Shown: in pieces, positions 4,949-50,720 of the stretch
Layout: the number at the start of each line of letters is the position of its first letter
Numbering within the stretch: position 1 is the first letter of the stretch
Assembly: GCA_041492985.1 (NCBI GenBank)
Contig: JBGPXY010000001.1
Coordinates: 1 to 52,057 of the forward strand
Length of the DNA: 52,057 bases
Reading direction: 5' to 3'
DNA from: Candidatus Eiseniibacteriota bacterium
GTDB lineage: Bacteria > Eisenbacteria > RBG-16-71-46
The notes under the pieces: model-generated
Seen by the model: the letters and a program-made list of their open reading frames with translations, nothing else
What the model was told of the DNA's origin: nothing
Databases searched by the model: none
Made by a program: the position numbers and the translations under genes

Positions 4949-6388
4949 TCAGAGCTTTCGGAACTCCGCGGTTTCGCCCTGCGCGCCAGGATTGCCGCGG
5001 GAGAATCCACCTGGCCCGGCCGATCCCACCACGGTCTGATTCCCAGTTCGCGTGAAAGAACTGGCCGCGTCCTCGAGAATCGCGATGCTCGGGCCGCCGC
5101 CGCCGCCGCCGCCGGCACCGCCACGGCCGCCGGTACCGCCACGGCCGCCGTTTCCGCTTAGGCCCGTACGGCCTCCCAGGAAGTCGGACGCCTGGGCTCC
5201 GGGCTCGCCGCCGACGCCGAAGGTGCCGCCGGCGCCGCCGTCTCCGCCTGGGCCACCGCTGCCGCCATTGGCCGCAACGATGACGTTGTTCAAGAGCGAG
5301 CCGGCTGAGCCCTGCGCGAGCAAGACGCCGAAAGATCCGCCGCCGCCGGCGCCGCCGGCACCACCCTTTCCTCCTCCGCCCCCCGCTCCGCCGCCGCCGC
5401 CGCCCGGGCCGCAAATCAAAAGCGTTCCGACGCCGGCGCCTCCGCCCCCCCCTCCTCCTCCGTTCTGACCGTCGATAGCCTTGTTGCCACCTGCGGGCAC
5501 GTAGCCGCCGCCGACGAAGTTGCCGAAGGACCCGCCCGACGCTCCGTGCGCTCCGTCGCTAACCGGCTGGCCGAAGCCGCCCACGTCGCCGAAATGGGGT
5601 GAGACGAGGACCTGGCCGCCCCTGCCGCCCAAGCCGTAGCCGGGGCCAGAGCCCGGTCGGCCACTAGCACCATCGCCCAGGGTTCCATAGCCGCCGTCTC
5701 CACCACTGCTACCGATCGTGGAACTCTGGCCCGCCCCTCCATCGTTGGGGCATTCGCCGCCGTCGGCGCCCCTCGCCCCGGCGCCCGTCGCGTCGAGTCC
5801 AGCCGCGCCGGGGGGACCCGTCGTCCCCGCCTTGCCCCGGCCCGCGTAGATCCGGTTGTCCGCGATCACGACGCCCTGACTCCCGTTCAGGAGATGGACG
5901 CCGATCGAACTGCCGCCCGAGGCCGTGGCGTCGGCGCTGCGAATGGAGAAGCCGTCGATCAGGAGCGAATCGGCGTTGCTCCCTGACATCGCCGTCGGCC
6001 CGCCCGAGATGACGGTGGAGTCGGTCGCGAGATCGCGGACCCAGGTCGCGCCGCTGTAGCCGCCGTGGAGGCTCATTCTCGAGCGGAGCGTGATGCTGCC
6101 GGCATACGTTCCATAGGCGACGTAGATGTCGGCGCGCGTGTTCCCGGTGGCCGCGACGTCGATCGCCTTCTGAATGGTCTTGAATGGCGCCGGTTGGGTC
6201 CCAACATTCGCATCGTCGCCCGTCGCGGCGCTGACGAAGTAGTTTCCTGGCACGTTCGGGACCCCCGGCGGGCCCGGGTTATTCGGCGCGGTAGGAGATT
6301 GCTTGCTGCAGCCAGTCGCAACCCCCAGAGCGAGCAACGTCACGAACGCCAGGGCCAGCCTGGTGGCCTGATGGATTCTATGATTCAT
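4949..6388 (-). CDS. Lipoprotein with DUF1565/right-handed beta-helix-like N-domain and a long Gly-rich low-complexity C-terminal half
   Basis: RBS GAGGAGG. Signal plus lipobox MNHRIHQATRLALAFVTLLALGVATGC. NYFVSAATGDDANVGTQPAPFKTIQKAIDVA..ADIYVAYGTYAG is DUF1565-like. The C-terminal roughly 200 aa are dominated by GGxGG runs. Confidence 0.7.
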   Translation of the reverse strand: MNHRIHQATRLALAFVTLLALGVATGCSKQSPTAPNNPGPPGVPNVPGNYFVSAATGDDANVGTQPAPFKTIQKAIDVAATGNTRADIYVAYGTYAGSITLRSRMSLHGGYSGATWVRDLATDSTVISGGPTAMSGSNADSLLIDGFSIRSADATASGGSSIGVHLLNGSQGVVIADNRIYAGRGKAGTTGPPGAAGLDATGAGARGADGGECPNDGGAGQSSTIGSSGGDGGYGTLGDGASGRPGSGPGYGLGGRGGQVLVSPHFGDVGGFGQPVSDGAHGASGGSFGNFVGGGYVPAGGNKAIDGQNGGGGGGGGAGVGTLLICGPGGGGGGAGGGGGKGGAGGAGGGGSFGVLLAQGSAGSLLNNVIVAANGGSGGPGGDGGAGGTFGVGGEPGAQASDFLGGRTGLSGNGGRGGTGGRGGAGGGGGGGPSIAILEDAASSFTRTGNQTVVGSAGPGGFSRGNPGAQGETAEFRKL

Positions 6389-6489
6389 GGTTCTGCCTCC
6401 TCGCAGACGCCGAGGACTACTGCTCGCCGCCCTGACGAGCTCTCTACAAGTGAATGCGCAGATTGTAGTCCGAGTGCGCAGCGGGGGGT

Positions 6490-6590
6490 GCTTCGTTCCC
6501 CCTCCAGTCCTCTCAAACGACATCACCCCAGCGAGAACAGGTCGCTGGGGCGATTGGCTATCGGTCTGAGGCGATGTCGGTTGCGTGACT
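6490..6590 (+). repeat. Intergenic module, short variant (copy A')
   Basis: Hairpin CCCCAGCGA-GAACAGG-TCGCTGGGG (6526-6550), followed by CGATTGGCTATCGGTCTGAGGCGAT and GTGACTTTGGC. Shares the hairpin-proximal blocks with 16583-16636 and 40402-40450. Confidence 0.55.
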
Positions 6591-6740
6591 TTGGCACGGG
6601 TCCGGTGTAGAGCGAATTCAAAGCCGCAGCAACCTCTGGCGCCATGTGCGGCTCGAGGTCTCGAGCCGCGCGAAGAAGAGATCGCCGCCGCCGGTTCTCC
6701 CAACCCCGTCGCGTCCTCGCCACGGATCTCGTCTCCGACC

Positions 6741-6941
6741 CTGCTACCGTTTGCTACCGTCTCAGAGTCCCAACGAGTCCTCTCGTGTCCCCTCCTGTCC
6801 CCGCAAATGATATCGCCCCAGCGAGGCAACTCGTTGGGGCGATGGGGGGAATCACTTGGGGCGATGCGGCTTGCGCGCTCTCGTTGAAAAACAAGCCTCC
6901 AGGTTTTGCAGACCCTCGCCTTACCACTTGGCTATGCCGCC
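6741..6941 (+). repeat. Intergenic module, full-length copy B, ending in a 40-nt tRNA-Cys 5'-half copy
   Basis: Collinear with 16508-16694. Contains decamers CTGCTACCGT/TTGCTACCGT, GAGTCCTCTCGTGTCCC, decamers CGTGTCCCCT/CCTGTCCCCG, hairpin 1 at 6816-6839, two GGGGCGAT boxes, hairpin 2 at 6868-6897 and TTTGCAGACCCTCGCCTTACC... Confidence 0.7.
6902..6941 (-). pseudogene. tRNA-Cys 5'-half fragment (positions 1-41: acceptor 5' strand, D-arm, anticodon stem-loop); not a functional tRNA
   Basis: 40/40 identity to 4582-4621. Identity breaks inside the 3' strand of the anticodon stem. No T-arm or 3' acceptor strand follows. Confidence 0.8.
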
Positions 6942-7224
6942 TCGGAAGTGTCGCGGGGCGCGGAAGGTAGCACGCCGAAAGAGGGAGCAACAACCTGAGT
7001 GGCCCGGAGGAGTGTGGGTTCAACAAGCGTCCAAGAGCAAGGTTCTCTACGACAGCGGGTCAACCCCACTTCCAGGTAGGCATGGGCGCCGTGAGGGCAT
7101 CATGCGCCGCGTTCGATTCCCCTGGGCCGAGCACGAGAGTTTCCGGGTGCCGGGCGCGCATCGTCCGGAATCGGCTGGCGTCGATCTCTCGCGAGATACG
7201 GGCCAACCGCGTTGCCGATGGGCA

Positions 7225-7707
7225 TCAGGGCTGACGAGGCTCCGCCACGAAGAGCGTCCGCAGGTAGTCCACCACATTCTGGATCTGCCGTTCATTGAGC
7301 GTGCGCCCCCACGGCGGCATCCCCGTCGAGAGCCCGACCGCGCCGCCACCCGAGCGGATCGCGGTCACAAGATCGACATCGGAGTGCCGTGCCTGGAAGC
7401 TAGAATCGGCCAGTGAGCGCGGCCGTGGATCGAGGTTGTAGGCGTTGAACCCGTCGCCCTTCCCTGTTTCTCCGTGGCAGTTCAGGCAATAGTGGCGATA
7501 GAGCGCCCGGCCTTCGCGCGCGTTGTATCCGAGTTCTGGGATCGGCAACGTCGAGGCGGAGTAGATCGCGCTGACCCTGTCGACCGCCGTCGATTCGGCG
7601 GCTCCCGGGATCCGCGACGCGCGCTGGGCGGCCGTGCCCCGGCAGCCACCGGCCCAGGCCAGCACGGCAGCCATCACCACACTCGATGCGCGGAGGCCGC
7701 GCCTCAT
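7225..7707 (-). CDS. Monoheme class-I c-type cytochrome, probable lipoprotein
   Basis: 160 aa with lipobox-like LAWAGGC, the single heme motif CLNCHG and a distal MPPWG Met ligand motif. The ATGA overlap with the upstream gene indicates coupling. Confidence 0.8.
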   Translation of the reverse strand: MRRGLRASSVVMAAVLAWAGGCRGTAAQRASRIPGAAESTAVDRVSAIYSASTLPIPELGYNAREGRALYRHYCLNCHGETGKGDGFNAYNLDPRPRSLADSSFQARHSDVDLVTAIRSGGGAVGLSTGMPPWGRTLNERQIQNVVDYLRTLFVAEPRQP

Positions 7708-9782
7708 GGCCGCTTCCCTCCCGGATTCCCGGCCGACTTCGCGGACGAGGCCGCACCGTGCGCCGCAGTGAGTGACGGGAGCGACGCCACGTACGCGGTC
7801 AGTGCACGGGCATCGACGTCATCGAGACCATAGTCGGGCTCGCGTGCGTCCGGCCTCCAGCGCTGCGGGCCTTTCAGCCAAGAATAGATCCAACCCGTCT
7901 TCAACCGCTGGCCGGCACCGTCGAGCAGCGGACCGTAGAAGCCCCCCTTCCCACCGATCATGTGGCAGGCCTGGCAGCCGTAGCGTTCGTGGAAGAGCTT
8001 CCGTCCCCGCTCGACCTCCTCGGCCGCCGGCGCGGTCGCAAAGATCTCGCCGGGAATGCGATCGTCGCGCAAGACGTTCTCGGCAATGCTGGCGATGAAG
8101 GCCCGTTCCTCATCGGGCATCTGGAGCTGGATCATCCGTTCTTCGAGGATCGGTCTCACCGTGGTCGGCAGCTTGAGATAGCCGGCCAGCCAGCTCTCGC
8201 GTACCTTGCTCCCCTCGGCCGTGAGCGGCGCGGTGGAGATGTCGCCACCGGCTCCGCCGATCTGGTGACAGGACATGCAGCGATACTTGCGCACCAGCTC
8301 CCCGAACCGACCCGGAGGCGTGTAGGCCGTCTCGCGAGCCGGCACCTGATACGCCACCGGCACCGGCGCGCGCCCCATCGAGAGGAGCGCCGTCGTCAGC
8401 GCTTCCGTCTCGTGCTGGGTGAAGCCGAAGCGGGGCATCTTGAGCCCGTCGCGGAACGATCGCGGGTTCGTGACTTTGGCCGCGAGCCAGTCGGGCAGCG
8501 CGCGGGGCAGATCGTTCCGCCGCCCGAAATCGAGCCGGCCGACCGGCTTGTCCCCGATCCCGGTCAGCTCCGGGCCGATCGCCGCACCTTGGGCTTGGCC
8601 GCCGATCTGATGGCAGCCGTTGCAGCCCGAGCGGCGGAAGATGGTTTCCCCCGCCTGCACCACGCGATCGGCGGAGTGGAGGCCGGGCGCCGGGGCCGGC
8701 GCTGACGCATCCGTGAACTCGTCCATCATGTAGTCGGCGAGGTCGGCCACGTCCCGCGCACTGAAGTGATAGCGCGGCATCCGGGTGTCGGGATAGAACC
8801 GCTGGGGATCGGCGAGGAAGGCGAGGAGCCAGCGACGCGTCACTTTGGATCCCATCCCCGAGAGCTCCGGCGCGCTTCCATTCCCCCGCCCTTCGATGCT
8901 GTGGCACGAGATGCAGCGCGAGGTCGAAAACAGAAGCTTGCCATGCTCGGGATCACCCGGCGCGACCACGGCGGGCAAGTCAGCGTCCAGATCGACGCGC
9001 GGCGGGCGGCTCCACAGGAACGCAACCACCGAATCGATCTCCCCCGCCGAGAGCTTGAACTCCGGCATCCAGGTCGCCGGCCGCAGGGACCTGGGCGACT
9101 GGATCCACGCCGCGAGCCACGCCGGATTGGTCTTCTGCGACAGGCCGGCCAGATCGGGGGCTTCGCTCTTCCAGCCCTCGTGACCCGCGACCTTGTGGCA
9201 TCCGAAGCAGCCGACCCGCGTCATCAAGGCCCGTCCCTCCGAGAGCAGCGATGCTTCGGGCACGGCGTCGGCGAGATGGCAGCGGCCGCACGCCGCCTCG
9301 GTGTAGCGCACCGGCAGGATCGGGGAACTCCAGTCGCGCACCTGGCCGTGCGCCTCGGCCATGGTGGTCGCGCGCCCCTGCCCCAGGTGACAGGCGACGC
9401 ATCCGAACCGACCGATATCTCCCGGCGTGTGCGGCGTGCGTGGGTGCTGGCGGAACGGTTCGGGGGCCCCGGCCATGCGGGGCTCCTCGACGCCCAGGTG
9501 GCAGCTGACGCAGCGATCGACGTGGTCGTCGAGCGCCGGTAGCCAGATCTGCTGAACCCCCACCACGCGCGCGCGGGCCTGCTTCAACTCCTTGAGGGAG
9601 GCTGCGGAGCGAAGCAGCCGCTGGCGGTACTCGTTCTGGTAGCGACGGTACTCGCGGAAGTAGTCCTTGATCGGCGACACCGCCAGCACGACGAGAAAGG
9701 CCACGCTGGAGACGCCGAACCAGAACCAGAGCCGGTCGGACGACGGCCCGGGCGGGGTCACAGGTGCACGCCTCCCTGCCAT
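7704..9782 (-). CDS. Membrane-anchored octaheme c-type cytochrome
   Basis: 692 aa from [11 protein letters not shown], with an N-terminal TM helix LWFWFGVSSVAFLVVLAV. Eight CxxCH motifs: CVSCH, CVACH, CGRCH, CFGCH, CISCH, CNGCH, CMSCH, CQACH. The longer ORF-track start (10625) overlaps the cytochrome b genes in another frame, so I rejected it. Confidence 0.8.
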   Translation of the reverse strand: MAGRRAPVTPPGPSSDRLWFWFGVSSVAFLVVLAVSPIKDYFREYRRYQNEYRQRLLRSAASLKELKQARARVVGVQQIWLPALDDHVDRCVSCHLGVEEPRMAGAPEPFRQHPRTPHTPGDIGRFGCVACHLGQGRATTMAEAHGQVRDWSSPILPVRYTEAACGRCHLADAVPEASLLSEGRALMTRVGCFGCHKVAGHEGWKSEAPDLAGLSQKTNPAWLAAWIQSPRSLRPATWMPEFKLSAGEIDSVVAFLWSRPPRVDLDADLPAVVAPGDPEHGKLLFSTSRCISCHSIEGRGNGSAPELSGMGSKVTRRWLLAFLADPQRFYPDTRMPRYHFSARDVADLADYMMDEFTDASAPAPAPGLHSADRVVQAGETIFRRSGCNGCHQIGGQAQGAAIGPELTGIGDKPVGRLDFGRRNDLPRALPDWLAAKVTNPRSFRDGLKMPRFGFTQHETEALTTALLSMGRAPVPVAYQVPARETAYTPPGRFGELVRKYRCMSCHQIGGAGGDISTAPLTAEGSKVRESWLAGYLKLPTTVRPILEERMIQLQMPDEERAFIASIAENVLRDDRIPGEIFATAPAAEEVERGRKLFHERYGCQACHMIGGKGGFYGPLLDGAGQRLKTGWIYSWLKGPQRWRPDAREPDYGLDDVDARALTAYVASLPSLTAAHGAASSAKSAGNPGGKRP

Positions 9783-10459
9783 GGCCAGATCCACTTCCAC
9801 CCGGGACCGCGGAAGAAGGTGCCGATCACCGTAAGGATGACCGCCACGACGACGAACCAGGTCATGATCCAGTCGCTGAGCGTCACGCGGACGAGCCACC
9901 GCCGCCACGAAGCCGGACAGAGCGGCAGCGAGGGCATCACCATCGCCGCATAGAGCAGGACCGTCGGGACGAGCACCGGCCACACGCGCCAGGCCGCGAG
10001 GAAGGCCACGAGCGCCGCCACCACGGTGGTCAGCCACGACAGCCGGCGCCGCGCGGAGGCCTCGAGGAAGCCCCGGTCCTCCAGGTTCGTTCGGAAGTAC
10101 GGGATCACGACCATCGCGACCACAACCAGCCCGGGGATCAGCACGCCGGCGACGACCGGCGGGAAGTAGTGGAGCAACTCTTGAAGTCCGAGGAAGTACC
10201 AGGGCGCCTTTGCCGGGTTGGGCGTGTTGGTCGGATCGGCGATGCCTTCCAGCGGGGAGTCGAAGAACAGCGAGAGCAGCGCCATGGCGATCACGCACAC
10301 CTGCACCAGGATGATTTCGCGCAGGATCAGGTGTGGCGCGGTCATCACCGTCTCCTCGCGATCGACGAGGACGCGGGCCGCGGTGTCCGGGCGCAGGATC
10401 GCGAGCCGCTTGGGCGTCGCCGTCGCGTCGCTGCTCGGCTCGATTCGGTACTCGGTCAT
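9758..10459 (-). CDS. Cytochrome b C-terminal part / subunit IV-like (PetD-like), extended
   Basis: 233 aa from MTEYRIEPS. The PEWY-equivalent motif is [12 protein letters not shown]. It has several TM helices. The ATGA overlap joins it to the upstream cytochrome b gene. Confidence 0.8.
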
Positions 10460-11202
10460 GCGTCCTCCCCGCTTGGGCGAGCCGTGCGGCGCGAGCCAGC
10501 CAGGCCGCCATCCTTGCGGACCCGCCAGAGATGGAGCCCGACCAGGAGCACCAGGGCCAGCGGCAGGATGACGCAGTGGAGGACGTAGAAGCGCAGGAGG
10601 GCGTTCTCGCCGACGATGTTCCCACCCAGCAGCAGATAGCGGAACGGCGGCCCGAGGACCGGCATCGCCTTCACCATGTTCGTGCCGACCGAGACCGCCC
10701 AGATGGCGAGCTGATCCCACGGTAGCAGGTAGCCGGTGTAGCTCAGCAGCAGCGTGAGGAGCAGCAGAACCACGCCGATCACCCAGTTGAACTCGCGCGG
10801 CGGACGGTAGGCCTTGTGATAGAAGACGCGCAGCATGTGCAGGAAGACAATGAACACCATCGCGTGCGCGGGCCAGCGGTGCAGATTGCGAAGGAACATC
10901 CCGTTGCTCACGGTGAACTGCAGCTCCTTCATGTCGTGGTAAGCCTGCGGCACCGAGGGATGGTAGTAGAGCATCAGCAGCAGCCCTGTGGCGGTCAGGA
11001 TGGCGAACAGGATGAGGCCGATGGCGCCCAGGTAGTACGTGCTCGAGCTTTCGAGGCTGCGCCGCCGCACCTTCGCAGGGTGCAGATGCAGGAGGAGACT
11101 CTCCATCACCACCATGACCCGGTTGCGATTCGTAGCCCGGATCCCGTGGCGGACGATGGAGTGCCACACGCGGCTCTCGGTGATCGACGTCGGCAGCCTC
11201 AT
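10456..11202 (-). CDS. Cytochrome b6-like (N-terminal four-helix, heme-binding part of cytochrome b)
   Basis: 248 aa with [25 protein letters not shown] and [26 protein letters not shown], the paired His ligands on helices B and D. The [15 protein letters not shown] motif is present. Confidence 0.9.
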
Positions 11203-11212
11203 CTGGTCCTCA

Positions 11213-11692
11213 TCAGAATCGGTACGTGGTGCCGGCCGGAACCTCCACCGCCGTGTCCACGATCAGCTCTCCCTTTTCGGAGAGGCTCATCTGCAGCCAG
11301 CGGAGAGGGCGTGGCGCGGGACCGGCCACGACGTCGCCGGCGAGCGTGAACTGGCTGCCATGGCAGGGGCAGGCGATGATGTTCCGGTCTGGCTGGAAGC
11401 GCGTGATGCATCCGAGATGTGTGCACACGGCCGACAGCGCGCGAAATCCTTCCGTAAGCCGGATGACGTAGACGCGCTGTTCGACGTTGGTCACCACCGA
11501 CCCGACCTCGATCGCGTCGGGTGGCCCGGCGGAGAACGCCGTCGGCGGCTCGAACAGCACGCGCGGCCGCAGGAAATCGACCAGCACCACGCCGGCGCCT
11601 GCGGCCGCCGCTGCGCACGCCGCCAGCCCGGCGGCGACGCAGAAATCGCGGCGCGTGATCCCCGGTGCCTTGGCGGCGTCGGCATCAGACAT
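11213..11692 (-). CDS. Rieske [2Fe-2S] protein with Tat signal
   Basis: Twin-arginine [11 protein letters not shown]. Cluster boxes CTHLGC and CPCHGS. The start at MSDADAAK overlaps the stop of the upstream flavoprotein gene by 8 nt. Confidence 0.9.
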
Positions 11693-13559
11693 GTGCCGGC
11701 TCGAGCAGCTGGAACTGCTCCATGGTGATGGTCCCCGCCGGGCAGCGCTCGGCACACAGCCCACAGCGGATGCAGATCGTCTCGTCTTTGATCAGCGCCG
11801 TGCCCGCGCCGCCTCCCTGCGCGAGCAGCGCCGCCGCGGCCTCCCCGTGTTCGGCGCGCACGGCGTCCCCCATCGCCGGATCGGCGACGATCTCGGACAG
11901 GGGCACGAAGGTGATGCAGTTCTCCGGGCACACGTCGGCGCAGCCGCCGCACAGGATGCACTCCGTGCCCTGTTCCGGGTCTTCGTGGAACACGGTGTTG
12001 ACCCAGCAGTGGAGGCAGCGCGATGCCTCGAGCCGGGCCGACACCTCGGTGAAGCAGTGCTCGATCTCGGCGATGCCGACACGCCGCTCGATCGGCAGGA
12101 CGGGCGGTCGCTGGCGCGGCACGCCCTCGAAATCCAGCGCCCGCCGGTAACCCGGCAGCGGTTCGATGAACACCTCTACCGGCGGACCCGGGGTCGCGAC
12201 GCCACGCAGAAAGCCGTCAATCGATGCCGCGGCCCTCTTCCCGTCCGCAACGGCCTCGATCGCAATGCGTGGTCCGAACGCGGCGTCACCCCCGGCGTAG
12301 ATGCCGGGGGCCGTGGTGGCGAGGGTCGTCGGATCCACCTGGAGCGTGCCGCGCGGTGTGACCGCAACTCCGTCCTTCGGTCGCAGGAATGACAGATCAC
12401 AGGCCTGACCGATCGCAAGCACGATGGTGTCGGCTGCGATCGCCAGCTCGGTGCCTGGGACAAAGGTCGGGTTGAAGCGCCGCTGGCCATCGAAGACTGC
12501 GGAGCACTCGATGGTTTCGAGGCCTGTCACGCGACCCGCCTCGCCGAGGATGCGCTGCGGCCCGCGCCCGGCATGGATGACGATGCCCTCCCGCTGCGCC
12601 TCATGGATCTCGTCGCGGTCGGCCGGCATGGCCTCGAGAGATTCGAGACACACGATGTGGACCTCCTTGGCACCGAAGCGGATGGCCGAGCGTGCGACGT
12701 CGAACGCCGTGACGATGTTGAGGCCCGGATGGATGACCTCGTCCCGAAGGGGTGTCCGCAGGGCGGAGCGCGCCACGTCTACGGCCACGTTTCCACCGCC
12801 CACGACGAGCACGCGCCGGCCGAGCTCGACGCGGTAGCCCATGTTGACGTTGAGCAGGAAGTCGACGCCCTTGAGCACCCCGTCCAGGTCGGCGCCGGCG
12901 ATCTCGAGGTCGCGGCTGCGCTGCGCGCCCGGGGCGAGGAACACCGACCGAAAACCCTGCTCGCGCAGATCCGACAGGAGGAAATCGCGGCCCAGGCGCA
13001 TCCCCACCTTGAGCTCGACGCCGAGGTTCAGGATCGCGTTGATCTCGAGCTTGATCAGCTCGCGCGGCAGTCGATACTCTGGGATGCCGAGACGCAGCAT
13101 CCCCCCCGGCACCGCCTGGGCCTCGAAGATGGTCACCGGATATCCGAACAGCGCCAGGTCGTGGGCGGCCGCGAGCCCTGCCGGGCCCGCGCCGATGATC
13201 GCCACGCGGTCCTGCGGGTGGCGCAGCAGGCGCTCGCCGTAGATCTCCCGGAGCAGATCCACGTCCATCATGCTCTCGACGCCGAAACGCTCGGTGACGA
13301 AGCGTTTCAGCGCCCGGATGGCAATCGGCTCGTCGAGCGCCCCACGGCGGCATGCCGCCTCGCAGGGCGCGGCGCAGATCCGGCCGCAGATGGATGCGAG
13401 CGGATTCGGTCGTCGCGCCACGGCGTAGGCCTCGCGGTACTTCCCCTCCGCGATCAGCGCCACGTAGCGCCCGGCCTCGGTGCCGACTGGGCAAGCCTTG
13501 CAGCAGGGGAAGTTGCTCTCCAGCCAGGCCCGGTCGACCCGGCGATCAGACGTTGACAC
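11685..13559 (-). CDS. GltD-like (glutamate synthase small-subunit family) NAD(P)-dependent FAD/Fe-S oxidoreductase with C-terminal 2x[4Fe-4S] ferredoxin domain
   Basis: 624 aa. N-terminal Cys cluster CCKACP...CGRICAAPCEAAC. Dinucleotide folds IIGAGPAGLAAA and VVGGGNVAVDVA. C-terminal CILCGGCADVCP and CIRCGLCAERCP. GTG start. Confidence 0.85.
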   Translation of the reverse strand: MSTSDRRVDRAWLESNFPCCKACPVGTEAGRYVALIAEGKYREAYAVARRPNPLASICGRICAAPCEAACRRGALDEPIAIRALKRFVTERFGVESMMDVDLLREIYGERLLRHPQDRVAIIGAGPAGLAAAHDLALFGYPVTIFEAQAVPGGMLRLGIPEYRLPRELIKLEINAILNLGVELKVGMRLGRDFLLSDLREQGFRSVFLAPGAQRSRDLEIAGADLDGVLKGVDFLLNVNMGYRVELGRRVLVVGGGNVAVDVARSALRTPLRDEVIHPGLNIVTAFDVARSAIRFGAKEVHIVCLESLEAMPADRDEIHEAQREGIVIHAGRGPQRILGEAGRVTGLETIECSAVFDGQRRFNPTFVPGTELAIAADTIVLAIGQACDLSFLRPKDGVAVTPRGTLQVDPTTLATTAPGIYAGGDAAFGPRIAIEAVADGKRAAASIDGFLRGVATPGPPVEVFIEPLPGYRRALDFEGVPRQRPPVLPIERRVGIAEIEHCFTEVSARLEASRCLHCWVNTVFHEDPEQGTECILCGGCADVCPENCITFVPLSEIVADPAMGDAVRAEHGEAAAALLAQGGGAGTALIKDETICIRCGLCAERCPAGTITMEQFQLLEPAHV

Positions 13560-13566
13560 CGGGCGC

Positions 13567-14157
13567 CTACTTCTTCATCGCGAAGTCGGCCGTCGTGATC
13601 CCGGCGACCGTCACCGGTCTGGCAGCCTCCGCCTTGAACTTCGGGTGCCACACCTTCACTGTGTAGGCACCGTCCGGCAGATTCTTGATGGAGTAGGCGC
13701 CGGTCTTCTCGGTGACTGCGAACCAAGGGGTCGGCAGCGCGATGATGAAGCCCTCCATCTCGGCGTGCACCTTGCACAGGAGCGTGGCGTTGCACCGCGT
13801 CTTGAAGGTGTAGCTGCGAGTCTGACCTTGCGGCCAGCTTCCCAGATTGAACTGCTCGCAGCACTTGTCCGGCGAAAAGACGTTGTGGAGAACCTGGTCG
13901 CCATTGAGGAAGTCGACCGTGGTTCCCTGCTGGACCGGCAGGACGTGCGGCGTGAACACCAGGTTCTGCTGGTTCATCCTCGCGTGGGCCGTCGGGGCCG
14001 GGAACGTCCTCCCGGGAATCGCGTCGATGTAGACCACCGCGTCCCCATTGGTCTTCGCGCCCATGACCGTGACGACGCCCTTCAACTCGCCCGCCGGGGC
14101 GGCCGAAGCCGCCGCCAGCAGGATCACGGCGCATCCCACGCCAGATAGAACTCGCAT
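13567..14157 (-). CDS. Secreted cupredoxin (type-1 blue copper) fused to a CarboxypepD_reg-like beta-sandwich
   Basis: Carries a signal peptide. Putative copper ligands are H in VLHNVF and CKVHAEM (C-x2-H-x2-M). The C-terminus has TGAYSIKNLPDGAYTVKVWHPKF. Confidence 0.8.
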   Translation of the reverse strand: MRVLSGVGCAVILLAAASAAPAGELKGVVTVMGAKTNGDAVVYIDAIPGRTFPAPTAHARMNQQNLVFTPHVLPVQQGTTVDFLNGDQVLHNVFSPDKCCEQFNLGSWPQGQTRSYTFKTRCNATLLCKVHAEMEGFIIALPTPWFAVTEKTGAYSIKNLPDGAYTVKVWHPKFKAEAARPVTVAGITTADFAMKK

Positions 14158-14191
14158 ACCGTTTCCTTTCGTGAGTCGGCCGGTGACGAAA

Positions 14192-15514
14192 TCAGAACCC
14201 GATGATGACGCCGAGCGTGCCTCCCTCGTTCGTGAATTTGCCCCCCGGCTCCTTCACCCATGAGCTGGCGAGGAACGACTTGACGTTGGCACGGGCGAGG
14301 CCGTTGACGGTCAAGGACACCCGGTCGGTCTGCTCGTCGGTGATCTTGAACGACTCCCACCGCCCGGCCGGGATCAGCCACGGATATGCCACCCAGGACA
14401 GTTCCGCGAACTGGCTCTTGATCGAGACGTCGACGATCGTCGGATCGGCCACGAACAGCCGGTCGTCCTTGCGGTCCGTATACCCAGCGCGGGCCATCAC
14501 GTCGTGGTAGTTCACGGCCACGTCACCCCCGGCCATCCGAAATGGATCCTGTGAGTTGGGATCCAGCGGATCTCCTCCCTCGAGCAGGCCCTTGCCCTTG
14601 TAAATGAAGCCGGAGAGCGAGAGGGAGGTTTCGCTCCAGGGCTGCGGGTTGGCGGGCAGCGCCGCCTCGGCGGCGCCGCTGGGAGCTCCGTCGAACGGCA
14701 GCCCCCCGAACTTGTAGGCCAGGCGGGCGTACACATCCTTCGAATGGTCGCCCAGGCTTCCCGACCCCTCGACCAGACCGGCGTTGTAGAGGACGCGGTG
14801 CTGGAGCATCCCGTAGGCCTCGAGGCCCTGCTGGAAGCCGTCCGGGGCCCAGGGGTTGTCGCCGACGGGCTGTGTTAGGACCAGCGGTTCCTGGTTCAGG
14901 ATGGAGCGATGCGAGGACACCAGCATGATCCCCGGTTCGAAAGAGCCGACCTTGAACTGCAGCGCGGGCGAATCGAGAGGGCGTACCAGGAGGTTGACCC
15001 GCTCCATCTCGGTGGCGATCTCGCCCCCGTCGCGGGCAAACACAACCGATCCCCAGAAGGAGAAATGCTCGTCGAGGGTCCCGGCGCCCAGAATCTCGAG
15101 CTCGCCGCCCATGCCGCCGAAGGTGACGGTCTTGGTCGTGGGATCGTAGTCGACCGTGCTCGTATAGAGGACGGCGACGGGCGGCATTCCGGGGATCTCT
15201 CCCGGCCATACCGCGTGCGGCCAGAGCTTCTTGTAGCCTTCCGCGCCCAGAGAGACGGGCGGGATCTTGGTCATCGCCGCATCGTTGCCGGCCGGGAACC
15301 GATAGCCGTTCTGCCGGAACGCTTCACCGAAGGGAGTCAGGGCGGGGATCGCAACGTGGCAGGTTTGACAGCTCGTCTGGTATTTCCGCGCGAATGCCGG
15401 AATCGTATAGGCGTTCCGCGGCGCGAGGAGCGCCGCCGAAAACAGCACGATCAACGCGAGCGCGAACACCGTGCGCACGTCGAAAACCACCCGCTTCGAT
15501 CCTTCTCGTGACAT
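14192..15514 (-). CDS. Outer-membrane beta-barrel-like protein with an N-terminal single c-heme motif (fused cytochrome-porin architecture, Cyc2-like in organisation)
   Basis: RBS GAGGAGGGG. Has an N-terminal hydrophobic signal and one CxxCH (FARKYQTSCQTCH) about 50 aa in. About 380 aa of alternating beta-strand-like sequence follow. The C-terminus is ...GVIIGF, and a terminal Phe is the OMP beta-signal. Confidence 0.65.
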   Translation of the reverse strand: MSREGSKRVVFDVRTVFALALIVLFSAALLAPRNAYTIPAFARKYQTSCQTCHVAIPALTPFGEAFRQNGYRFPAGNDAAMTKIPPVSLGAEGYKKLWPHAVWPGEIPGMPPVAVLYTSTVDYDPTTKTVTFGGMGGELEILGAGTLDEHFSFWGSVVFARDGGEIATEMERVNLLVRPLDSPALQFKVGSFEPGIMLVSSHRSILNQEPLVLTQPVGDNPWAPDGFQQGLEAYGMLQHRVLYNAGLVEGSGSLGDHSKDVYARLAYKFGGLPFDGAPSGAAEAALPANPQPWSETSLSLSGFIYKGKGLLEGGDPLDPNSQDPFRMAGGDVAVNYHDVMARAGYTDRKDDRLFVADPTIVDVSIKSQFAELSWVAYPWLIPAGRWESFKITDEQTDRVSLTVNGLARANVKSFLASSWVKEPGGKFTNEGGTLGVIIGF

Positions 15515-15553
15515 AGCCCCTCCTCGTTTCAGTGGGACAATCGAACGAGGACG

Positions 15554-15582
15554 AGCCTAGAAGGACGCCGCGGGCGTCACAA
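15554..15582 (-). promoter_or_regulatory. Candidate sigma70-type promoter of the respiratory operon
   Basis: The minus strand reads TTGTGA-N17-TAGGCT, about 40 nt upstream of the ATG at 15514, in a locally AT-richer stretch. Confidence 0.3.
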
Positions 15583-15604
15583 TCAGCGGAATGAATCATT
15601 TCTT

Positions 15605-15622
15605 CTGATGCAGATGCATCAG
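15605..15622. promoter_or_regulatory. 18-bp palindrome CTGATGCA-GA-TGCATCAG, a candidate HTH-dimer (LuxR-type) operator or the terminator of the regulator gene
   Basis: The half-sites are perfect 8-bp inverted repeats, flanked by ATCAT/ATGAT. This is the most AT-rich patch of the region. It is centred about 35 nt upstream of the putative -35 and lies 30 nt downstream of the PAS-LuxR stop. Confidence 0.35.
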
Positions 15623-15651
15623 ATGATCGCCCAGTCGGGGAAGGGGGCAGG

Positions 15652-16302
15652 CTAGAGGAGATGTGTGCGGAGCGCCAGCGAGACCGCTTCGAGCTTGCTG
15701 TGAACGTCGAGCTTGCGGAGGATGTTCTGGACGTGGTTGCGCGTCGTGGCGACACTGATGAAAAGTGAGTCGGCGATGCCCTGAGTGCTGGCGCCCTCAG
15801 CCAGGAGCCGCAGGATCTGGATCTCTCGCGAGGTCAGGGCCGGGGATGTCGCCGACGGCGCATCACCGGTCACGGGTCGGGACACCGGCGGCGTGGGCTG
15901 ATCGGTCAGGATCCGACGGATCAGCGCGCTGGCCTCGCGCTGGCGGTCGACTTTCGCGAGGAAGTGGACGAGCGTGTACTGGCGTGGGCGCGGCCCCGGC
16001 AACACCACGATCGAGAAGTGGGCCGGTATGAGCTCGCCCGACTCGGTACGGACGTCGAGTTCGAAGCGCCGCGCCGTTTCGTGCCGTTCGACCATGAACG
16101 TCAGGGAGCACTGGCGGTCGCAGAAGCGGTTGCCAAAGACATCACGACCACAGATGATCTCGTGGCAGGACTTGCCGAGCACCTGGGAGGCGTGGTAGCC
16201 GAGCAACTCCTGGGCACCCTTGTTCCAGATGGCGATGCGCCCCTTCTCGTCAGTCGCAAAAGCGGCGCCGCCAGCGCGGGCGACCACATCCAGTGGGTCC
16301 AC
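15652..16302 (-). CDS. PAS-domain LuxR/GerE-family transcriptional regulator
   Basis: 216 aa with a GTG start. N-terminal PAS (GRIAIWNKGAQELLGY...) carries a Cys cluster CHEIIC...C..QC. The C-terminus has LTSREIQILRLLAEGASTQGIADSLFISVATTRNHVQNILRKL. Confidence 0.85.
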   Translation of the reverse strand: MDPLDVVARAGGAAFATDEKGRIAIWNKGAQELLGYHASQVLGKSCHEIICGRDVFGNRFCDRQCSLTFMVERHETARRFELDVRTESGELIPAHFSIVVLPGPRPRQYTLVHFLAKVDRQREASALIRRILTDQPTPPVSRPVTGDAPSATSPALTSREIQILRLLAEGASTQGIADSLFISVATTRNHVQNILRKLDVHSKLEAVSLALRTHLL

Positions 16303-16507
16303 GGTCAGCTCGCCCTCTCACCTCTGCGTTCGAATGAGTCTCCCGCTGCGGTTCGCCCAGCGGTAGCGCGCACCAGAGCCGATCGTCCCACATCGTCCCG
16401 CGAGACGACAGCGGGATCGTTGGGCCCGGGCCCGTCGGGGAGCGCATGCGCTCGTCCTCTGAGCCAAGGCGCCGCAGACAGACTTGACTCCATCCTAGTC
16501 CCCCCAC

Positions 16508-16694
16508 TTGCTACAATTTGCTACCGTCTCAACTTCCTCATGAGTCCTCTCGTGTCCCTTCGTGTCCCCTCGAAGGATATCTCCCCAGCGAAGGCAACTC
16601 GCTGGGGCGATTGGGCTATCGGTCTGGGGCGATATCGCTCGCGGGCTCGGCGTTGAAGAAAATCGCGCCGAAATTTGCAGACCCTCGCCTTACC
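16508..16694 (+). repeat. Intergenic module, full-length copy C, ending in a 21-nt tRNA-Cys fragment
   Basis: Collinear with 6741-6941. Decamers at 16508-16527 and 16551-16570. Hairpin 1 at 16583-16607, hairpin 2 at 16647-16671, and TTTGCAGACCCTCGCCTTACC at 16674-16694. Confidence 0.7.
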
Positions 16695-16830
16695 TGTGGC
16701 GAATACGCAGATCAGCGCCTTGCGGAACCATGGCCTGCGTCACCAGGAATGCCCGATCATGGCTCCGAGGGTGCCACCCTCTGGGGACGGGATGCCGGCT
16801 ACGCCCGCGCCAGCCTTGGGAGCAAGCGAA

Positions 16831-18014
16831 TCAGACCTCCATCACCGCGGCCGTAATGACGTTGATGAACAGGTCTCCACCCCAGTGCGGTGACCCCACC
16901 CTCGCCCCTTGGTAGCTTTGAACCGAGAAATAGCACCCGACGATCTCATGAACCGGGTCCACCCATAAGGACATGCCGCCGGAGCCGCCATGGCAGAACG
17001 AGGCTGGCGAGTAAAGCGATCCGTCTCGCAGACCTCTCTTGGTCCCATGGATGTCCCAACCGAGACCCCACCCCGCCTCGGGGAACAGCTCGTCGCCGTC
17101 CCTTGCCGGGATCCCGGGAATCTGGTTTCGCGTCATCTCGGTAACGGACGCAGGGCTCAAGATCCTGACATCGCCGCGGCAGCCGCGATCGAGAAACATC
17201 TGGGCGAAGATCGCCATATCCATCGCAGTCGAGTACGCGGCGCCGTTGGCCCAGGGGGTGTGCTGAAATGTCGGGGTTTCGAGCCCGGGCTCTGAACCGA
17301 GGCTCACGGCCCACCCCGCCTCCATCCGGCGACGCACCAGTCGGGATCGCGAAGACTCGCGTACGCCGAATGACGTGTCGATCATGCGCAGTGGCTCAAA
17401 GATTCTCTTCGCTGCGAACTCCGACACGGATTGCCCGCTCACCCGGCGCACGATCTCGCCCAGCAGGCGATAGCCATAGTCGCAGTAGGACATCTCTACA
17501 CCCGGCGGCTTCGACAATGGCGCCTGATAGCGCAACCCCAACCACTCGTGCATGTAGGGGGGCTGGTCGCCCACGGGGGGAGGAGCGGCGAGCGTGCCGC
17601 GATTCTGCTTCACATACGTTTCGAGCTGCTCATCGTTGAACCCCGAGGTGTGCGTCAGGAGATGGTGGACCATGACGGAGCTCTTGCCTTCGCCCTGGAA
17701 CTCCGGGATGTATTCGGCCACCGGTCGGTTGAGTCCCAGCAACCCGTCTTCCACCAGAATCATGACCGCGGTGGCCGCAATCGGCTTGGTGATGGAAGCC
17801 AGGGGGAAGATCGTGTCCCTCTCGACCCGTGGAGCACCGGGCTCGGGCGTCAGGTGCCCGTGTGCCTCGTGAAGGACAACGATGCCGCGTCGCGCGGCAA
17901 GAACCACCAGCGCTGGCGTGCGCTCTTGCGCTACCAGTCGCGCCGCCAGATCTGCGGCGACACGCACGCGATCGGGCGACATCCCGACCTCTTCGGGGGT
18001 TCCCGTGCGCAGGC

Positions 18015-18018
<4 letters not shown>
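16831..18018 (-). CDS. Serine hydrolase, beta-lactamase/transpeptidase-like fold (class C / EstB-like)
   Basis: 395 aa with the SxxK motif ASITKP. The TTG start overlaps the kinase stop as TTGA. The N-terminus MSLRTGTPEEVGMSPDRVR parallels the paralog MKLRDGDPEEAGMSAERIR. Confidence 0.85.
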
Positions 18019-21662
<3,644 letters not shown>

Positions 21663-47850: not shown

Positions 47851-47888
47851 TTTGGGTCGCGTTGCCGATACGGTAGATTCCCCCGCTC

Positions 47889-50564: not shown

Positions 50565-50720
50565 CCCCGCCTCGTCCGGCGCCCGCGCGTCCTCCGCTGC
50601 GCGCGGTGGTGATGCTCACCCCTCCGCGCGCGGGTTGAACGCGTCCTCGGTCGTGCGATATCGTCGGGCCATCGAACCTGACGAGAACACAGTGACGAGA
50701 CCTCCAGAGGGAGTGCGTGC

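Follow-up and report, generated by a model that had tools for sequence, protein, structure and literature searches.

A predicted NAD(H)-linked iron-sulphur flavoprotein encoded with an APWY-type Rieske/cytochrome b complex in a Candidatus Eiseniibacteriota bacterium

The 52,057-nt stretch of Candidatus Eiseniibacteriota contig JBGPXY010000001.1 analysed here (the window, by which the whole stretch is meant) carries on its minus strand an operon for a Rieske/cytochrome b (R/b) complex that includes a gene encoding an iron-sulphur (Fe-S) flavoprotein. This flavoprotein is very probably the cytoplasmic NAD(H) subunit of the complex, a b6-type assembly of the so-called APWY clade, as indicated by its domain make-up, its conserved motifs, its homology to Kuste4570 of the anammox bacterium Kuenenia stuttgartiensis, the invariant adjacency of its gene to those of the complex in close relatives and the overlap of its stop codon with the start of the Rieske gene. 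The whole anammox-type reading, which combines such a subunit with a bifurcation of electrons at the quinol-oxidising (Qo) site, is in our estimate equally likely to prove right or wrong. The gene and its product show the following features:

11685-13559, minus strand: flavoprotein open reading frame (ORF) of 624 amino acids, GTG start at 13559 and TGA stop at 11685-11687
13284-13514, minus strand: Fer4_20 domain (Pfam), residues 16-92
Residues 19, 23, 58, 62, 66 and 70: Cys of the N-terminal Fe-S domain, which also has Lys85 at the position of the Glu117 cluster ligand of NfnB
Residues 118-440: Pyr_redox_2 domain (Pfam)
13176-13193, minus strand: GAGPAG, dinucleotide-binding motif for flavin adenine dinucleotide (FAD), residues 123-128
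12783-12800, minus strand: GGGNVA, dinucleotide-binding motif for NAD(H), residues 254-259
12675-12758, minus strand: family-specific insertion of ca. 27 amino acids, residues 268-295
12639-12650, minus strand: C-L-E-S, residues 304-307, at the position of YRRT in alignments to 9bov_A and Kuenenia
11739-12020, minus strand: 'RCLHC' (Cys515, Cys518) followed by the 2x[4Fe-4S] ferredoxin domain
Residues 534-612: Fer4_7/Fer4 dicluster ferredoxin (Pfam), with Cys534/537/540/544, Cys596/599/602/606 and an extra Cys548
11685-11692, minus strand: ATGTCTGA, overlap of 8 nt between the flavoprotein stop and the Rieske start

The original prediction had placed a 624-amino-acid ORF at 11685-13559; this ORF exists and lies on the minus strand, the plus-strand translation of the same positions giving many stops. 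Its product is 70-92% identical to more than 100 database clusters and all 16 of its Fe-S cysteines are 96-100% conserved among 71 orthologues, which together place the ORF far beyond chance. GAGPAG, GGGNVA and the C-terminal 2x[4Fe-4S] motifs, which read CILCGGCADVCP at residues 534-545 and CIRCGLCAERCP at residues 596-607, were all located in the sequence as described. The predicted N-terminal Fe-S cysteine cluster is also present, but in the 'CC' with which it begins only Cys19 is conserved in the 71 orthologues, Cys20 being variable. The protein had further been said to have no signal peptide and to be cytoplasmic; indeed, a hydropathy scan detected neither a hydrophobic segment nor a signal-like N-terminus, and since no export signal or transmembrane (TM) segment emerged from it, the cytoplasm is a reasonable reading of its location.

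Of the designation 'GltD-like', the superfamily and the N-terminal Fe-S/FAD/NAD layout stand while GltD proper does not. The GltD/gltA models of NCBIfam all score far below their cut-offs (TIGR01317, 193 bits against 448; TIGR01318, 220 against 483; TIGR01316, 291 against 472) and no gltB-like gene occurs among the window ORFs scanned, which rules out a GltD identity; nfnA, dsrAB and hydB/hydC-like partner genes were equally absent from these ORFs. The best NCBIfam model is the generic NF009410 'NAD(P)-binding protein', with 437 bits for a cut-off of 516. The nearest relatives are NfnB-like modules: the best PDB sequence matches are 9bov_A (Bfu-type NfnABC, E-value 2e-94), 9n5u_A and StnC 8oh5_C, followed by classical NfnB, GltD and DPD. 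An AlphaFold2 (AF2) model built on a 68-sequence alignment (predicted local distance difference test, pLDDT, 88; predicted template modelling score, pTM, 0.87) returned NfnABC 9bov_A, 9n5u_A and StnC 8oh5_C as top Foldseek hits, in the same order as the sequence search. The NfnB of an NfnAB enzyme was ruled out as well, on account of the length of 624 amino acids with a ferredoxin domain (ca. 470 amino acids in NfnB), of Leu-Glu in place of YRR, of Lys in place of Glu117 and of the lack of nfnA in the window. By sequence and predicted fold, the product thus belongs to the Fe-S flavoproteins of the GltD/NfnB superfamily and is extended at its C-terminus by a dicluster ferredoxin.

With the NfnB-like modules of NfnABC and StnABC, and with classical NfnB (4ylf_B, 5jca_L), the window protein has in common the FAD and NAD(P) Rossmann domains and the N-terminal C-x3-C-P and C-x3-C-x3-C-x3-C ligands. 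It differs from NfnABC/StnABC by the absence of HydB/HydC-like or NfnA partners and of a formate-dehydrogenase-like extension, by ending in a ferredoxin domain and by the loss of YRR; its flavin has no second electron path, and flavin-based bifurcation would therefore not be expected. DsrL, as described in PMC7596348, displays the same order, in which an N-terminal two-cluster domain is followed by an FAD domain that encloses the NAD(P) domain, then by a linker and, at the C-terminus, by a 2x[4Fe-4S] module, with NAD and NADP subtypes told apart by YRR, and one subtype, DsrL-1A, has an insertion of ca. 32 amino acids in the NAD(P) domain. However, the partner of DsrL is the soluble DsrAB and the protein is defined by its dsrAB context, whereas the window has no dsr genes.

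These relationships raise the question of whether the flavoprotein might be an independent enzyme, a soluble oxidoreductase between NAD(P)H and ferredoxin or another acceptor akin to Nfn, SudA, DsrL or GltD, that is merely co-regulated with the R/b genes, for instance for redox balance. Such an enzyme would fit the lack of a membrane segment, the soluble nature of the relatives NfnB, GltD, DsrL and DPD and the domain order, which is identical in DsrL (PMC7596348). The lack of a gltB, nfnA, dsrAB or hydB/hydC-like partner in the window and the GltD/gltA scores below cut-off argue against it, and so does the genomic context examined below.

Regarding the cofactor, the residues Y310-R311-R312 of NfnB hold the 2'-phosphate of NADPH, and measurements on DsrL have established a strict NADP(H) dependence for the enzymes that carry YRR and NAD(H) specificity for the enzymes devoid of it (PMC7596348). 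Leu-Glu occupies both Arg positions of YRR in 68 of the 71 orthologues, a pattern that includes the window protein, and YRR or YRG is kept only in three Chloroflexota. This replacement predicts NAD(H) rather than NADP(H), so that NAD(H) is probably the cofactor; the NAD(P)H linkage initially proposed is accordingly retained for its NAD part, while its NADP(H) alternative is disfavoured by the (C/S)-L-E found at this site.

Lys85 is invariant in the orthologues and, when mapped via the 4ylf_B alignment, corresponds to Glu117 of NfnB, which in the T. maritima enzyme is the non-Cys ligand of the proximal cluster (PMC7596348). The distal N-terminal cluster may be completed by Cys515 and Cys518, as suggested by the occurrence of 'RCLxC' past the flavin domains, a motif order common to StnC and NfnA. 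The four Fe-S clusters would then form a chain leading from FAD to the C-terminal ferredoxin domain, the presumed docking and electron-exit module. Within this domain, Cys548 (codon 11916-11918; CPENC) directly follows the first CxxCxxCxxxCP, is 99% conserved in the orthologues and has a counterpart in stand-alone ferredoxins of Acidimicrobiales (CPWKC). The insertion at residues 268-295 directly follows the GGGNVA helix and duplicates the motif A(V/F)DVARSA(L/I)R, which the orthologues conserve in both places; HMMER places PDB segment 333-343 twice on this region. It is missing in the Kuenenia orthologue and in all solved homologues, and has a pLDDT below 50 in the AF2 model.

The association of the flavoprotein with the R/b genes was followed in two samples of loci. 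The first, seeded with the flavoprotein, comprises 79 loci of GTDB species genomes from Eisenbacteria, Krumholzibacteriia, Acidobacteriota, Bacteroidota, Ignavibacteriota, Gemmatimonas, Wallbacteria and Chloroflexota, with the cultured Geothrix terrae, G. campi and G. oryzisoli (Acidobacteriota; loci L037, L039 and L054) among the carriers. The best matches, with 90% identity to locus L001, make an Eisenbacteria genome the most likely origin of the window. A cytochrome b gene lies at most 3 kb away in all 70 loci that offer at least 1.5 kb of downstream sequence, and the Rieske gene is also present in 69 of these, the exception stopping at a contig edge. In the window the genes are transcribed in the order PAS-LuxR, Cyc2, cupredoxin, flavoprotein, Rieske, cytochrome b6, subunit IV, octahaem c and monohaem c, an order that is kept outside Chloroflexota; in Chloroflexota it becomes flavoprotein, cytochrome b, subunit IV and Rieske, and the Cyc2 and cupredoxin genes are absent upstream. 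Of the 67 loci that offer at least 2.5 kb of upstream sequence, 50 encode both the CXXCH protein and the cupredoxin.

The second sample, 80 loci collected by cytochrome b alignment, is unbiased as to the flavoprotein. A full flavoprotein occurs in all 23 loci with at least 58% cytochrome b identity and adequate flanks, mostly from Terriglobia, Bryobacterales and Thermoanaerobaculia. Among more distant loci with adequate flanks, the flavoprotein is found in 6 and nothing in 18; the loci without it include Nitrospinaceae, Poribacteria, Vicinamibacteria-like, Dehalococcoidia, Ktedonobacteria and Thermomicrobiales members, of which Nitrospinaceae, Poribacteria, Dehalococcoidia and others retain Rieske, cytochrome b, subunit IV and multihaem c. 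Eleven further distant loci, from Acidimicrobiales, have only a stand-alone ferredoxin of ca. 138 amino acids just upstream of cytochrome b, which matches flavoprotein residues 532-613 including the long inter-motif insert and the extra CPxxC cysteine. Three of these stand-alone 2x[4Fe-4S] ferredoxins, beside APWY-clade cytochrome b, are located as follows:

L179, 8502-8915
L216, 8449-8862
L195, 4128-4538

The Acidimicrobiales arrangement suggests an n-side ferredoxin subunit without flavoprotein. Of the flavoprotein, it seems to be the ferredoxin domain that goes with the cytochrome, and its stand-alone occurrence beside cytochrome b supports a role of the C-terminal domain as docking module. 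Since remote members of the cytochrome b clade lack the flavoprotein, the module is clade-specific and accessory: the flavoprotein is obligatory within the close clade and accessory across the wider 'APWY' cytochrome b clade. The original prediction had named homologous operons devoid of the flavoprotein as a finding that would count against it; such operons do exist among remote members of the cytochrome b clade and none was seen in close relatives, every one of which shows the linkage (70/70 and 23/23 loci).

The adjacency of flavoprotein and R/b genes spans at least seven phylum-level groups and two gene orders, plus the anammox bacteria. Its strictness, the retention of an isolated ferredoxin domain beside cytochrome b in Acidimicrobiales, the conserved stop/start overlap with the Rieske gene and the co-migration of anammox homologues with the R/b complexes of these bacteria, reported by de Almeida 2016 (cited in PMC5600118 and PMC12954380), are hard to reconcile with an independent soluble enzyme, which we consider quite improbable. 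As to the overlap, the flavoprotein stop was predicted to lie 8 nt inside the Rieske ORF, and this is what the sequence contains: the Rieske ATG is found within ...GCACATGTCTGATGCC..., the octamer ATGTCTGA belongs to both genes, and no Shine-Dalgarno sequence occurs upstream of this ATG. According to a start-codon heuristic, the junction overlaps in 46 of 76 related loci and by exactly -8 in 26 of them. The recurrence of the overlap agrees with the coupling claimed for the two genes, which is genetic and probably also translational.

The operon genes are all on the minus strand and tightly packed, with several ATGA overlaps. Besides the flavoprotein they comprise:

15652-16302, minus strand: PAS-LuxR (GerE) regulator (Pfam), with synteny conserved directly upstream of the operon
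15603-15622, minus strand: perfect palindrome TCTGATGCA-TC-TGCATCAGA, ca. 108 nt upstream of the cyc2 ATG (15514)
14192-15514, minus strand: fused cytochrome-porin of the Cyc2 family, 440 amino acids (diagnostic motif, length, AF2, Foldseek)
13567-14157, minus strand: secreted cupredoxin with CarboxypepD_reg beta-sandwich, 196 amino acids (Pfam)
11213-11692, minus strand: Rieske [2Fe-2S] protein, 159 amino acids (Pfam)
10456-11202, minus strand: four-helix cytochrome b6-type subunit, 248 amino acids (Pfam)
9758-10459, minus strand: subunit IV-like protein, 233 amino acids (Pfam Cytochrom_B_C)
7704-9782, minus strand: membrane-anchored octahaem cytochrome c, 692 amino acids, ATG at 9782 (Pfam, CxxCH count)
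7225-7707, minus strand: monohaem class-I cytochrome c, 160 amino acids, its start overlapping the octahaem gene stop (ATGA)

The Rieske protein has a Tat-type RRDF signal-anchor, CTHLGC and CPCHGSQF boxes and a Ser/Phe signature, with Ser113 and Phe115 of CPCHGSQF conserved at 97% and 93%, respectively. Across the whole PDB its best match is 9rk4_A (Kuste4569), with 106 bits as compared with at most 65 bits for b6f Rieske proteins. Cytochrome b has the haem ligands His108/122/209/224, and its His39 matches His43 of Kuste4571; the CxGG site for haem c_n is absent from it and from 70 of 70 orthologues, which have Y/W-x-L-G instead. Subunit IV, whose start overlaps the cytochrome b stop (ATGA), has 4-5 TM helices predicted by hydropathy and a KAPWYF Qo motif in which A, W and Y are at least 95% and P at least 70% conserved. 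The octahaem cytochrome shows eight CxxCH and one N-terminal TM helix, and combines four c7/NapB-like haems with four class-I domains.

In the APWY clade defined by Kao & Hunte (2014), which was uncharacterised at the time of their writing and one member of which was proposed to run in reverse, the Rieske protein is predicted to be of mid-to-high potential (S-F or S-Y) (PMC4122944). The APWY of subunit IV together with the S-F signature of the Rieske protein places the window complex in this clade. A canonical b6f or bc1 complex was ruled out by APWY instead of PEWY, by octahaem and monohaem c in place of cytochrome f/c1, by the 4-5 predicted TM helices of subunit IV (three in b6f), by the lack of CxGG and by the presence of the flavoprotein gene.

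Closest to the window complex in composition are R/b-3 (Kuste4569-4574) and R/b-2 (Kustd1480-1485) of K. stuttgartiensis, which contain the putative NAD(P) oxidoreductases Kuste4570 and Kustd1483 (PMC12954380). For these complexes it has been proposed that quinol electrons are bifurcated between a high-potential acceptor and NAD(P)+ (Kartal 2013, as cited in PMC12954380), a proposal that draws on AlphaFold models and Rieske potentials as well as on gene content and co-migration (PMC12954380); the flavoprotein homologues were reported to co-migrate with the complexes by de Almeida 2016, as cited in the two sources given above. The Kustd1480 Rieske protein, which bears the same Ser/Phe signature as that of the window, has a measured potential of +335 mV (PMC12954380). 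In the AlphaFold3 model of the anammox complex, His43 of cytochrome b ligates an extra inter-monomer haem b; a low-potential bL has been argued for, and Qi sites lack clear support in these homologues (PMC12954380).

The chain sequence of 9rk4_A fetched 68 comparison loci, almost all from Brocadiales. In tblastn, Kuste4570 orthologues of more than 50 Brocadiales loci share 34-46% identity with the window flavoprotein over its residues 8-621, and a pairwise alignment with the orthologue of a Kuenenia sp. gives 39.6% over 563 columns; the window protein is thus a full-length homologue, ferredoxin domain included, of the anammox R/b-associated subunits. For the other subunits, identities with Brocadiales reach 50-54% for cytochrome b (54% with that of Kuenenia), 40-47% for Rieske and ca. 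28% for subunit IV. Both flavoproteins have NfnABC 9bov/9bp5 as best structural relative (PMC12954380; 9bov_A is the same protein as 9bp5), four Cys groups and Lys at the NfnB Glu117 position (Kuenenia 'ALKRFV'), and both complexes share the WRVRKDGG arginines and have a four-helix b6-like cytochrome b with an LHLHPAKV motif (window His39 = His43), a subunit IV of ca. 5 TM helices and a multihaem c that replaces cytochrome f. The window complex is probably of the same kind as the Kuste4569-73 and Kustd1480-85 complexes.

Differences also exist. The window flavoprotein has C-L-E-S where Kuenenia keeps YRRT, a 27-amino-acid insertion in its NAD domain and Gly at the position of Kuste4570 Arg511; the Kuenenia cytochrome b has the CxGG haem c_n site that is missing in the window; and the gene order is flavoprotein then Rieske in the window but Rieske then flavoprotein in anammox bacteria. 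Four class-I domains are present in the window octahaem cytochrome, an HAO-like partner is lacking, Cyc2 and cupredoxin genes are additional members of the operon, and the hosts that carry it are not anammox bacteria and have no anammoxosome. In a rough neighbour-joining (NJ) tree of 590 columns, the flavoproteins of anammox bacteria and of Limnocylindria/Chloroflexia fall near the long Bfu-type proteins, apart from the window clade. Two candidate markers of the flavoprotein were rejected: His39, considered as sign of an extra haem peculiar to flavoprotein-bearing complexes, occurs without exception in the 80 cytochrome b-seeded relatives, whether or not they have a flavoprotein, and the long subunit IV (5 TM) has counterparts in flavoprotein-less relatives, which also align to its C-terminal part.

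Two planctomycete loci were further noted. In the Planctomycetota metagenome-assembled genome JACRII01, which is Brocadiales-related, locus L191 (1984-8831) encodes in this order a Cyc2-like protein, a cupredoxin, Rieske, flavoprotein, cytochrome b (CLGG), subunit IV and multihaem c; it is the second R/b cluster of this genome besides a Kuste4569-type locus (L101), and its gene order indicates that the association with Cyc2 and cupredoxin is present in the anammox lineage too. In Planctomycetes bacterium RIFOXYC2_FULL_41_27 (L113, 4689-7453), Rieske is followed by cytochrome b, subunit IV and multihaem c with no flavoprotein in between; being close to the Kuste4569-type cluster, this locus is a natural 'minus-flavoprotein' comparison.

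According to the anammox-type reading, which is the one we favour, the C-terminal dicluster ferredoxin domain would dock on the n-side of the cytochrome b dimer, and electrons would be exchanged between FAD, the four Fe-S clusters and the n-side b haem(s). The complex would join three pools, namely cytoplasmic NAD(H), membrane menaquinone and a high-potential periplasmic chain composed of Rieske, octahaem c, monohaem c, cupredoxin and outer-membrane Cyc2. Quinol oxidation at Qo would be bifurcated, the first electron passing to the high-potential chain and the second through bL, bH and the Fe-S chain to reduce NAD+. Operating near equilibrium, this reaction would be reversible, and in the reverse mode NADH and the proton-motive force would help to lift electrons of the high-potential chain into menaquinone; these electrons could come from Fe(II) via Cyc2 and cupredoxin. 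Reverse electron flow or bifurcation in the window complex is put forward here as a hypothesis, by analogy with the anammox proposal.

Several points weigh against it. In terms of energy, an estimated ca. 370 mV would be available from menaquinol to Rieske for ca. 250 mV required by NAD+ reduction, and forward bifurcation must also move one electron against the membrane potential, so that the balance appears tight. Many of the organisms that carry the operon are heterotrophs in which a need for quinol-derived NADH is not evident. The monophyly of R/b-linked flavoproteins was not recovered in the NJ tree, which has no support values and one misplaced fragment. The invariance of His39 in relatives devoid of flavoprotein leaves it without value as evidence for a flavoprotein-specific haem, and in the window protein Gly occupies the place of Kuste4570 Arg511, which the anammox model puts close to the haem propionates. 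Finally, the lack of a haem c_n cysteine implies an n-side electron path different from that of the published anammox model; taken together with the nonspecific His39, this means that the anammox path is not simply transferable.

The same components could also work in the opposite sense, in an NADH-fed Q cycle whereby NADH would reduce quinone at Qi through FAD, the Fe-S clusters and the n-side haem b, and electrons would then be delivered to the octahaem and monohaem cytochromes, cupredoxin and Cyc2, making up a compact proton-translocating NADH:cytochrome c/extracellular-acceptor oxidoreductase. All steps of this route would be downhill, with no special energetics, the NAD(H)-type motif suits a catabolic donor, and the operon has one component per compartment from the cytoplasm to the outer membrane; an analogue would be ferredoxin:NADP+ reductase (FNR) on the chloroplast b6f complex in cyclic electron flow. 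Moreover, the ExtOPQS relatives of Geobacter belong to a cluster whose products were reported to be more abundant during Fe(III)-dependent growth (PMC5877670), and Geothrix and Ignavibacteriaceae, both carriers, have been named as Fe(III)/humic-substance reducers (PMC6344600). Yet this family lacks haem c_n, which in b6-type complexes is the Qi cofactor, Qi is also the site for which the anammox homologues provide no clear support (PMC12954380), and the experimental record of Cyc2, as far as summarised in PMC8406198, is that of an Fe(II) oxidase only. The high potential suggested by the Ser-containing Rieske, the cupredoxin, the class-I c domains and Cyc2 is besides a poor fit to the reduction of Fe(III) oxides. 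The haem of Cyc2 has reportedly been measured at about +208 mV. We regard the NADH-fed Q cycle as the main alternative, possible but less likely than the anammox-type reading.

A further option would dispense with quinone chemistry, cytochrome b acting as a dihaem wire, like the anchors of formate dehydrogenase or nitrate reductase, that conducts electrons from NADH by way of its pair of b haems to the Rieske/c-type haems, and from there to Cyc2. Dibrova et al., in the view given in PMC5600118, indeed consider ancestral short cytochromes b as anchors of cytoplasmic dehydrogenases, and in the anammox models the distance from bP to the nearest c-type haem is unusually short, at 26-28 A (PMC12954380). 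The Qo elements are however conserved (APWY, Rieske cluster and disulfide, mobile-head architecture), which argues for a retained quinol/quinone chemistry, and such a short circuit would dissipate energy rather than conserve it; a transmembrane wire is therefore very improbable.

According to the definition in PMC8406198, a Cyc2 protein carries a signal peptide, is at least 365 amino acids long, forms a 16-strand porin and has only one CXXCH, with PXFAR[Q/K][T/Y] shortly before it and PXL four residues after it. The 440-amino-acid product reads IPAFARKYQTSCQTCHVAIPAL (PAFARKY...CQTCH...PAL), a motif invariant in 55 orthologues; its AF2 model, built with database homologues, has a pLDDT of 79 and 16 long beta-strands, and Foldseek matches it to 16-strand porins including OprP 2o4v and OprO 4rjw, both of which are also reported relatives of Cyc2. 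On these published features it is a member of the Cyc2 family, with a predicted role as Fe(II) oxidase. The cupredoxin has the type-1 Cu ligands His91, Cys128, His131 and Met134, which are 98-100% conserved, an amicyanin-like C-x2-H-x2-M spacing and weak plastocyanin/blue-copper matches in PDB.

Upstream of cyc2, the palindrome TCTGATGCA-TC-TGCATCAGA lies within the 137-nt gap between the PAS-LuxR gene and the operon, and the TGATGCA-N2-TGCATCA element recurs at an identical offset in loci L001, L055 and L006; as such it may serve as operator for the PAS-LuxR regulator encoded next to it. A promoter and terminator scan of 6800-16700 gave results at or below shuffle expectation, being uninformative in this high-GC organism.

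Outside anammox bacteria, the membrane subunits of the window complex have near-family relatives in ExtMNOPQS of Geobacter sulfurreducens, part of the extHIJKLMNOPQS cluster in which an R/b set is found amid cytochromes and an outer-membrane porin and whose proteins are reportedly more abundant in Fe(III)-dependent growth (PMC5877670). Scores against NCBIfam models are 265 bits for cytochrome b with ExtP (cut-off 290), 52 bits for subunit IV with ExtQ and 100.4 bits for octahaem c with ExtS (cut-off 100), the last also having SoxX-like domains. Geobacter Ext nevertheless has no flavoprotein, Cyc2 or cupredoxin, its ExtI is a haem-less porin-like protein and its ExtQ is shorter.

The set of an outer-membrane Cyc2, a periplasmic cupredoxin, c-type cytochromes and an R/b complex also occurs in the rus and petI operons of Acidithiobacillus ferrooxidans. 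In this organism the 'uphill' route from Fe(II) to NAD+ runs through Cyc2, rusticyanin, CycA1, a reverse bc1 complex and NDH-1. The petI operon holds an NAD-linked gene, sdrA (PMC10654088), and in both systems Glu of the Qo motif is replaced by Pro, as PPWY in Acidithiobacillus and APWY in the window (PMC4122944). In contrast to Acidithiobacillus, however, the window has all parts in one operon, and a split b6-type cytochrome b of a different clade, and its NAD module, instead of being a separate complex I, is an Fe-S flavoprotein that seems to be attached to the R/b complex; the carrier hosts belong to neutrophilic, mostly heterotrophic lineages that are not known to oxidise Fe(II). The chloroplast b6f complex with FNR offers another b6-type complex with an NAD(P)-linked flavoprotein on the n-side, like the arrangement proposed here. 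FNR was reportedly found on chloroplast cytochrome b6f by Zhang et al. in 2001. It has an unrelated fold and no Fe-S chain, binds peripherally and is not co-encoded with the complex.

Elsewhere the 52-kb window encodes a BBE-type FAD oxidase, two beta-lactamase-family hydrolases, two Ser/Thr kinases, a resistance-nodulation-division (RND) efflux system, a P-type ATPase and proteins sorted by the type IX secretion system (T9SS), and no further respiratory genes were found in it. Other observations concern:

4949-6829, minus strand: ORF downstream of the operon with no Pfam match and an ambiguous start position, its product having a signal-like segment and, in a C-terminal half very rich in Gly, GGxGG repeats
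16831-18018, minus strand, and 21897-23078, plus strand: paralogous beta-lactamase-family (serine hydrolase) genes
18015-21662: gene for a Ser/Thr kinase-AAA ATPase of 1215 amino acids, flanked by the serine hydrolase pair, its stop overlapping the start of the first hydrolase gene
42200-44224, minus strand (674 amino acids), and 47270-50638, plus strand (1122 amino acids): large ORFs with no Pfam match at E<=1e-5, putative genes in a sequence of 68% GC

Short b6-type cytochromes b accompanied by NAD(P)-binding Fe-S oxidoreductases have been described in planctomycetes and, in a brief mention in PMC5600118, in 'many other cases', so that the association of a flavoprotein with R/b genes is not categorically new. 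The cluster uniting Cyc2, cupredoxin, flavoprotein and R/b genes has no prior description in the searchable literature, full coverage of which is not implied. Relative to the literature searched, what is new is the NAD(H)-type variant lacking haem c_n, its constant combination with Cyc2 and cupredoxin genes in one operon of Acidobacteriota, Eisenbacteria and FCB-group members, the ferredoxin that stands alone in Acidimicrobiales and the occurrence in cultured Geothrix.

Tentatively, the nine-gene operon may constitute a self-contained, envelope-spanning path from Cyc2 to NAD(H) through a single R/b complex. This path could take 'uphill' electrons from Fe(II) and couple the Qo reaction to NAD+/NADH, which, if true, would supplant the separate reverse bc1 and reverse complex I of Acidithiobacillus, or it could be a route from NADH to an extracellular acceptor. 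A possible tie to environmental iron cycling is suggested, and current surveys based on the Cyc2 gene would score the operon simply as 'iron oxidation'. If correct, the proposal would reveal a widespread and unrecognised iron-linked energy module in Acidobacteriota, Eisenbacteria, Krumholzibacteria, Zixibacteria, Bacteroidota and Ignavibacteriota.

Whether the low-potential electron of an R/b complex can be passed on to NAD(P)+, and not back to quinone, is a question that has stood since the anammox proposal, and anammox bacteria are slow-growing and genetically intractable. These data indicate that flavoprotein-bearing R/b complexes are common beyond them, in Acidobacteriota, Eisenbacteria and several FCB-group lineages, where carriers could be probed by way of NADH, menaquinone, Fe(II)/Fe(III) and the cytochromes of the periplasm; the cultured Geothrix carriers make the anammox bifurcation hypothesis experimentally approachable. 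If the hypothesis is true, Geothrix would be the first tractable system for quinol-based bifurcation to NAD+ by an R/b complex, and if the flavoprotein is instead an NADH input device, the complex would represent a new compact NADH:cytochrome c respiratory complex.

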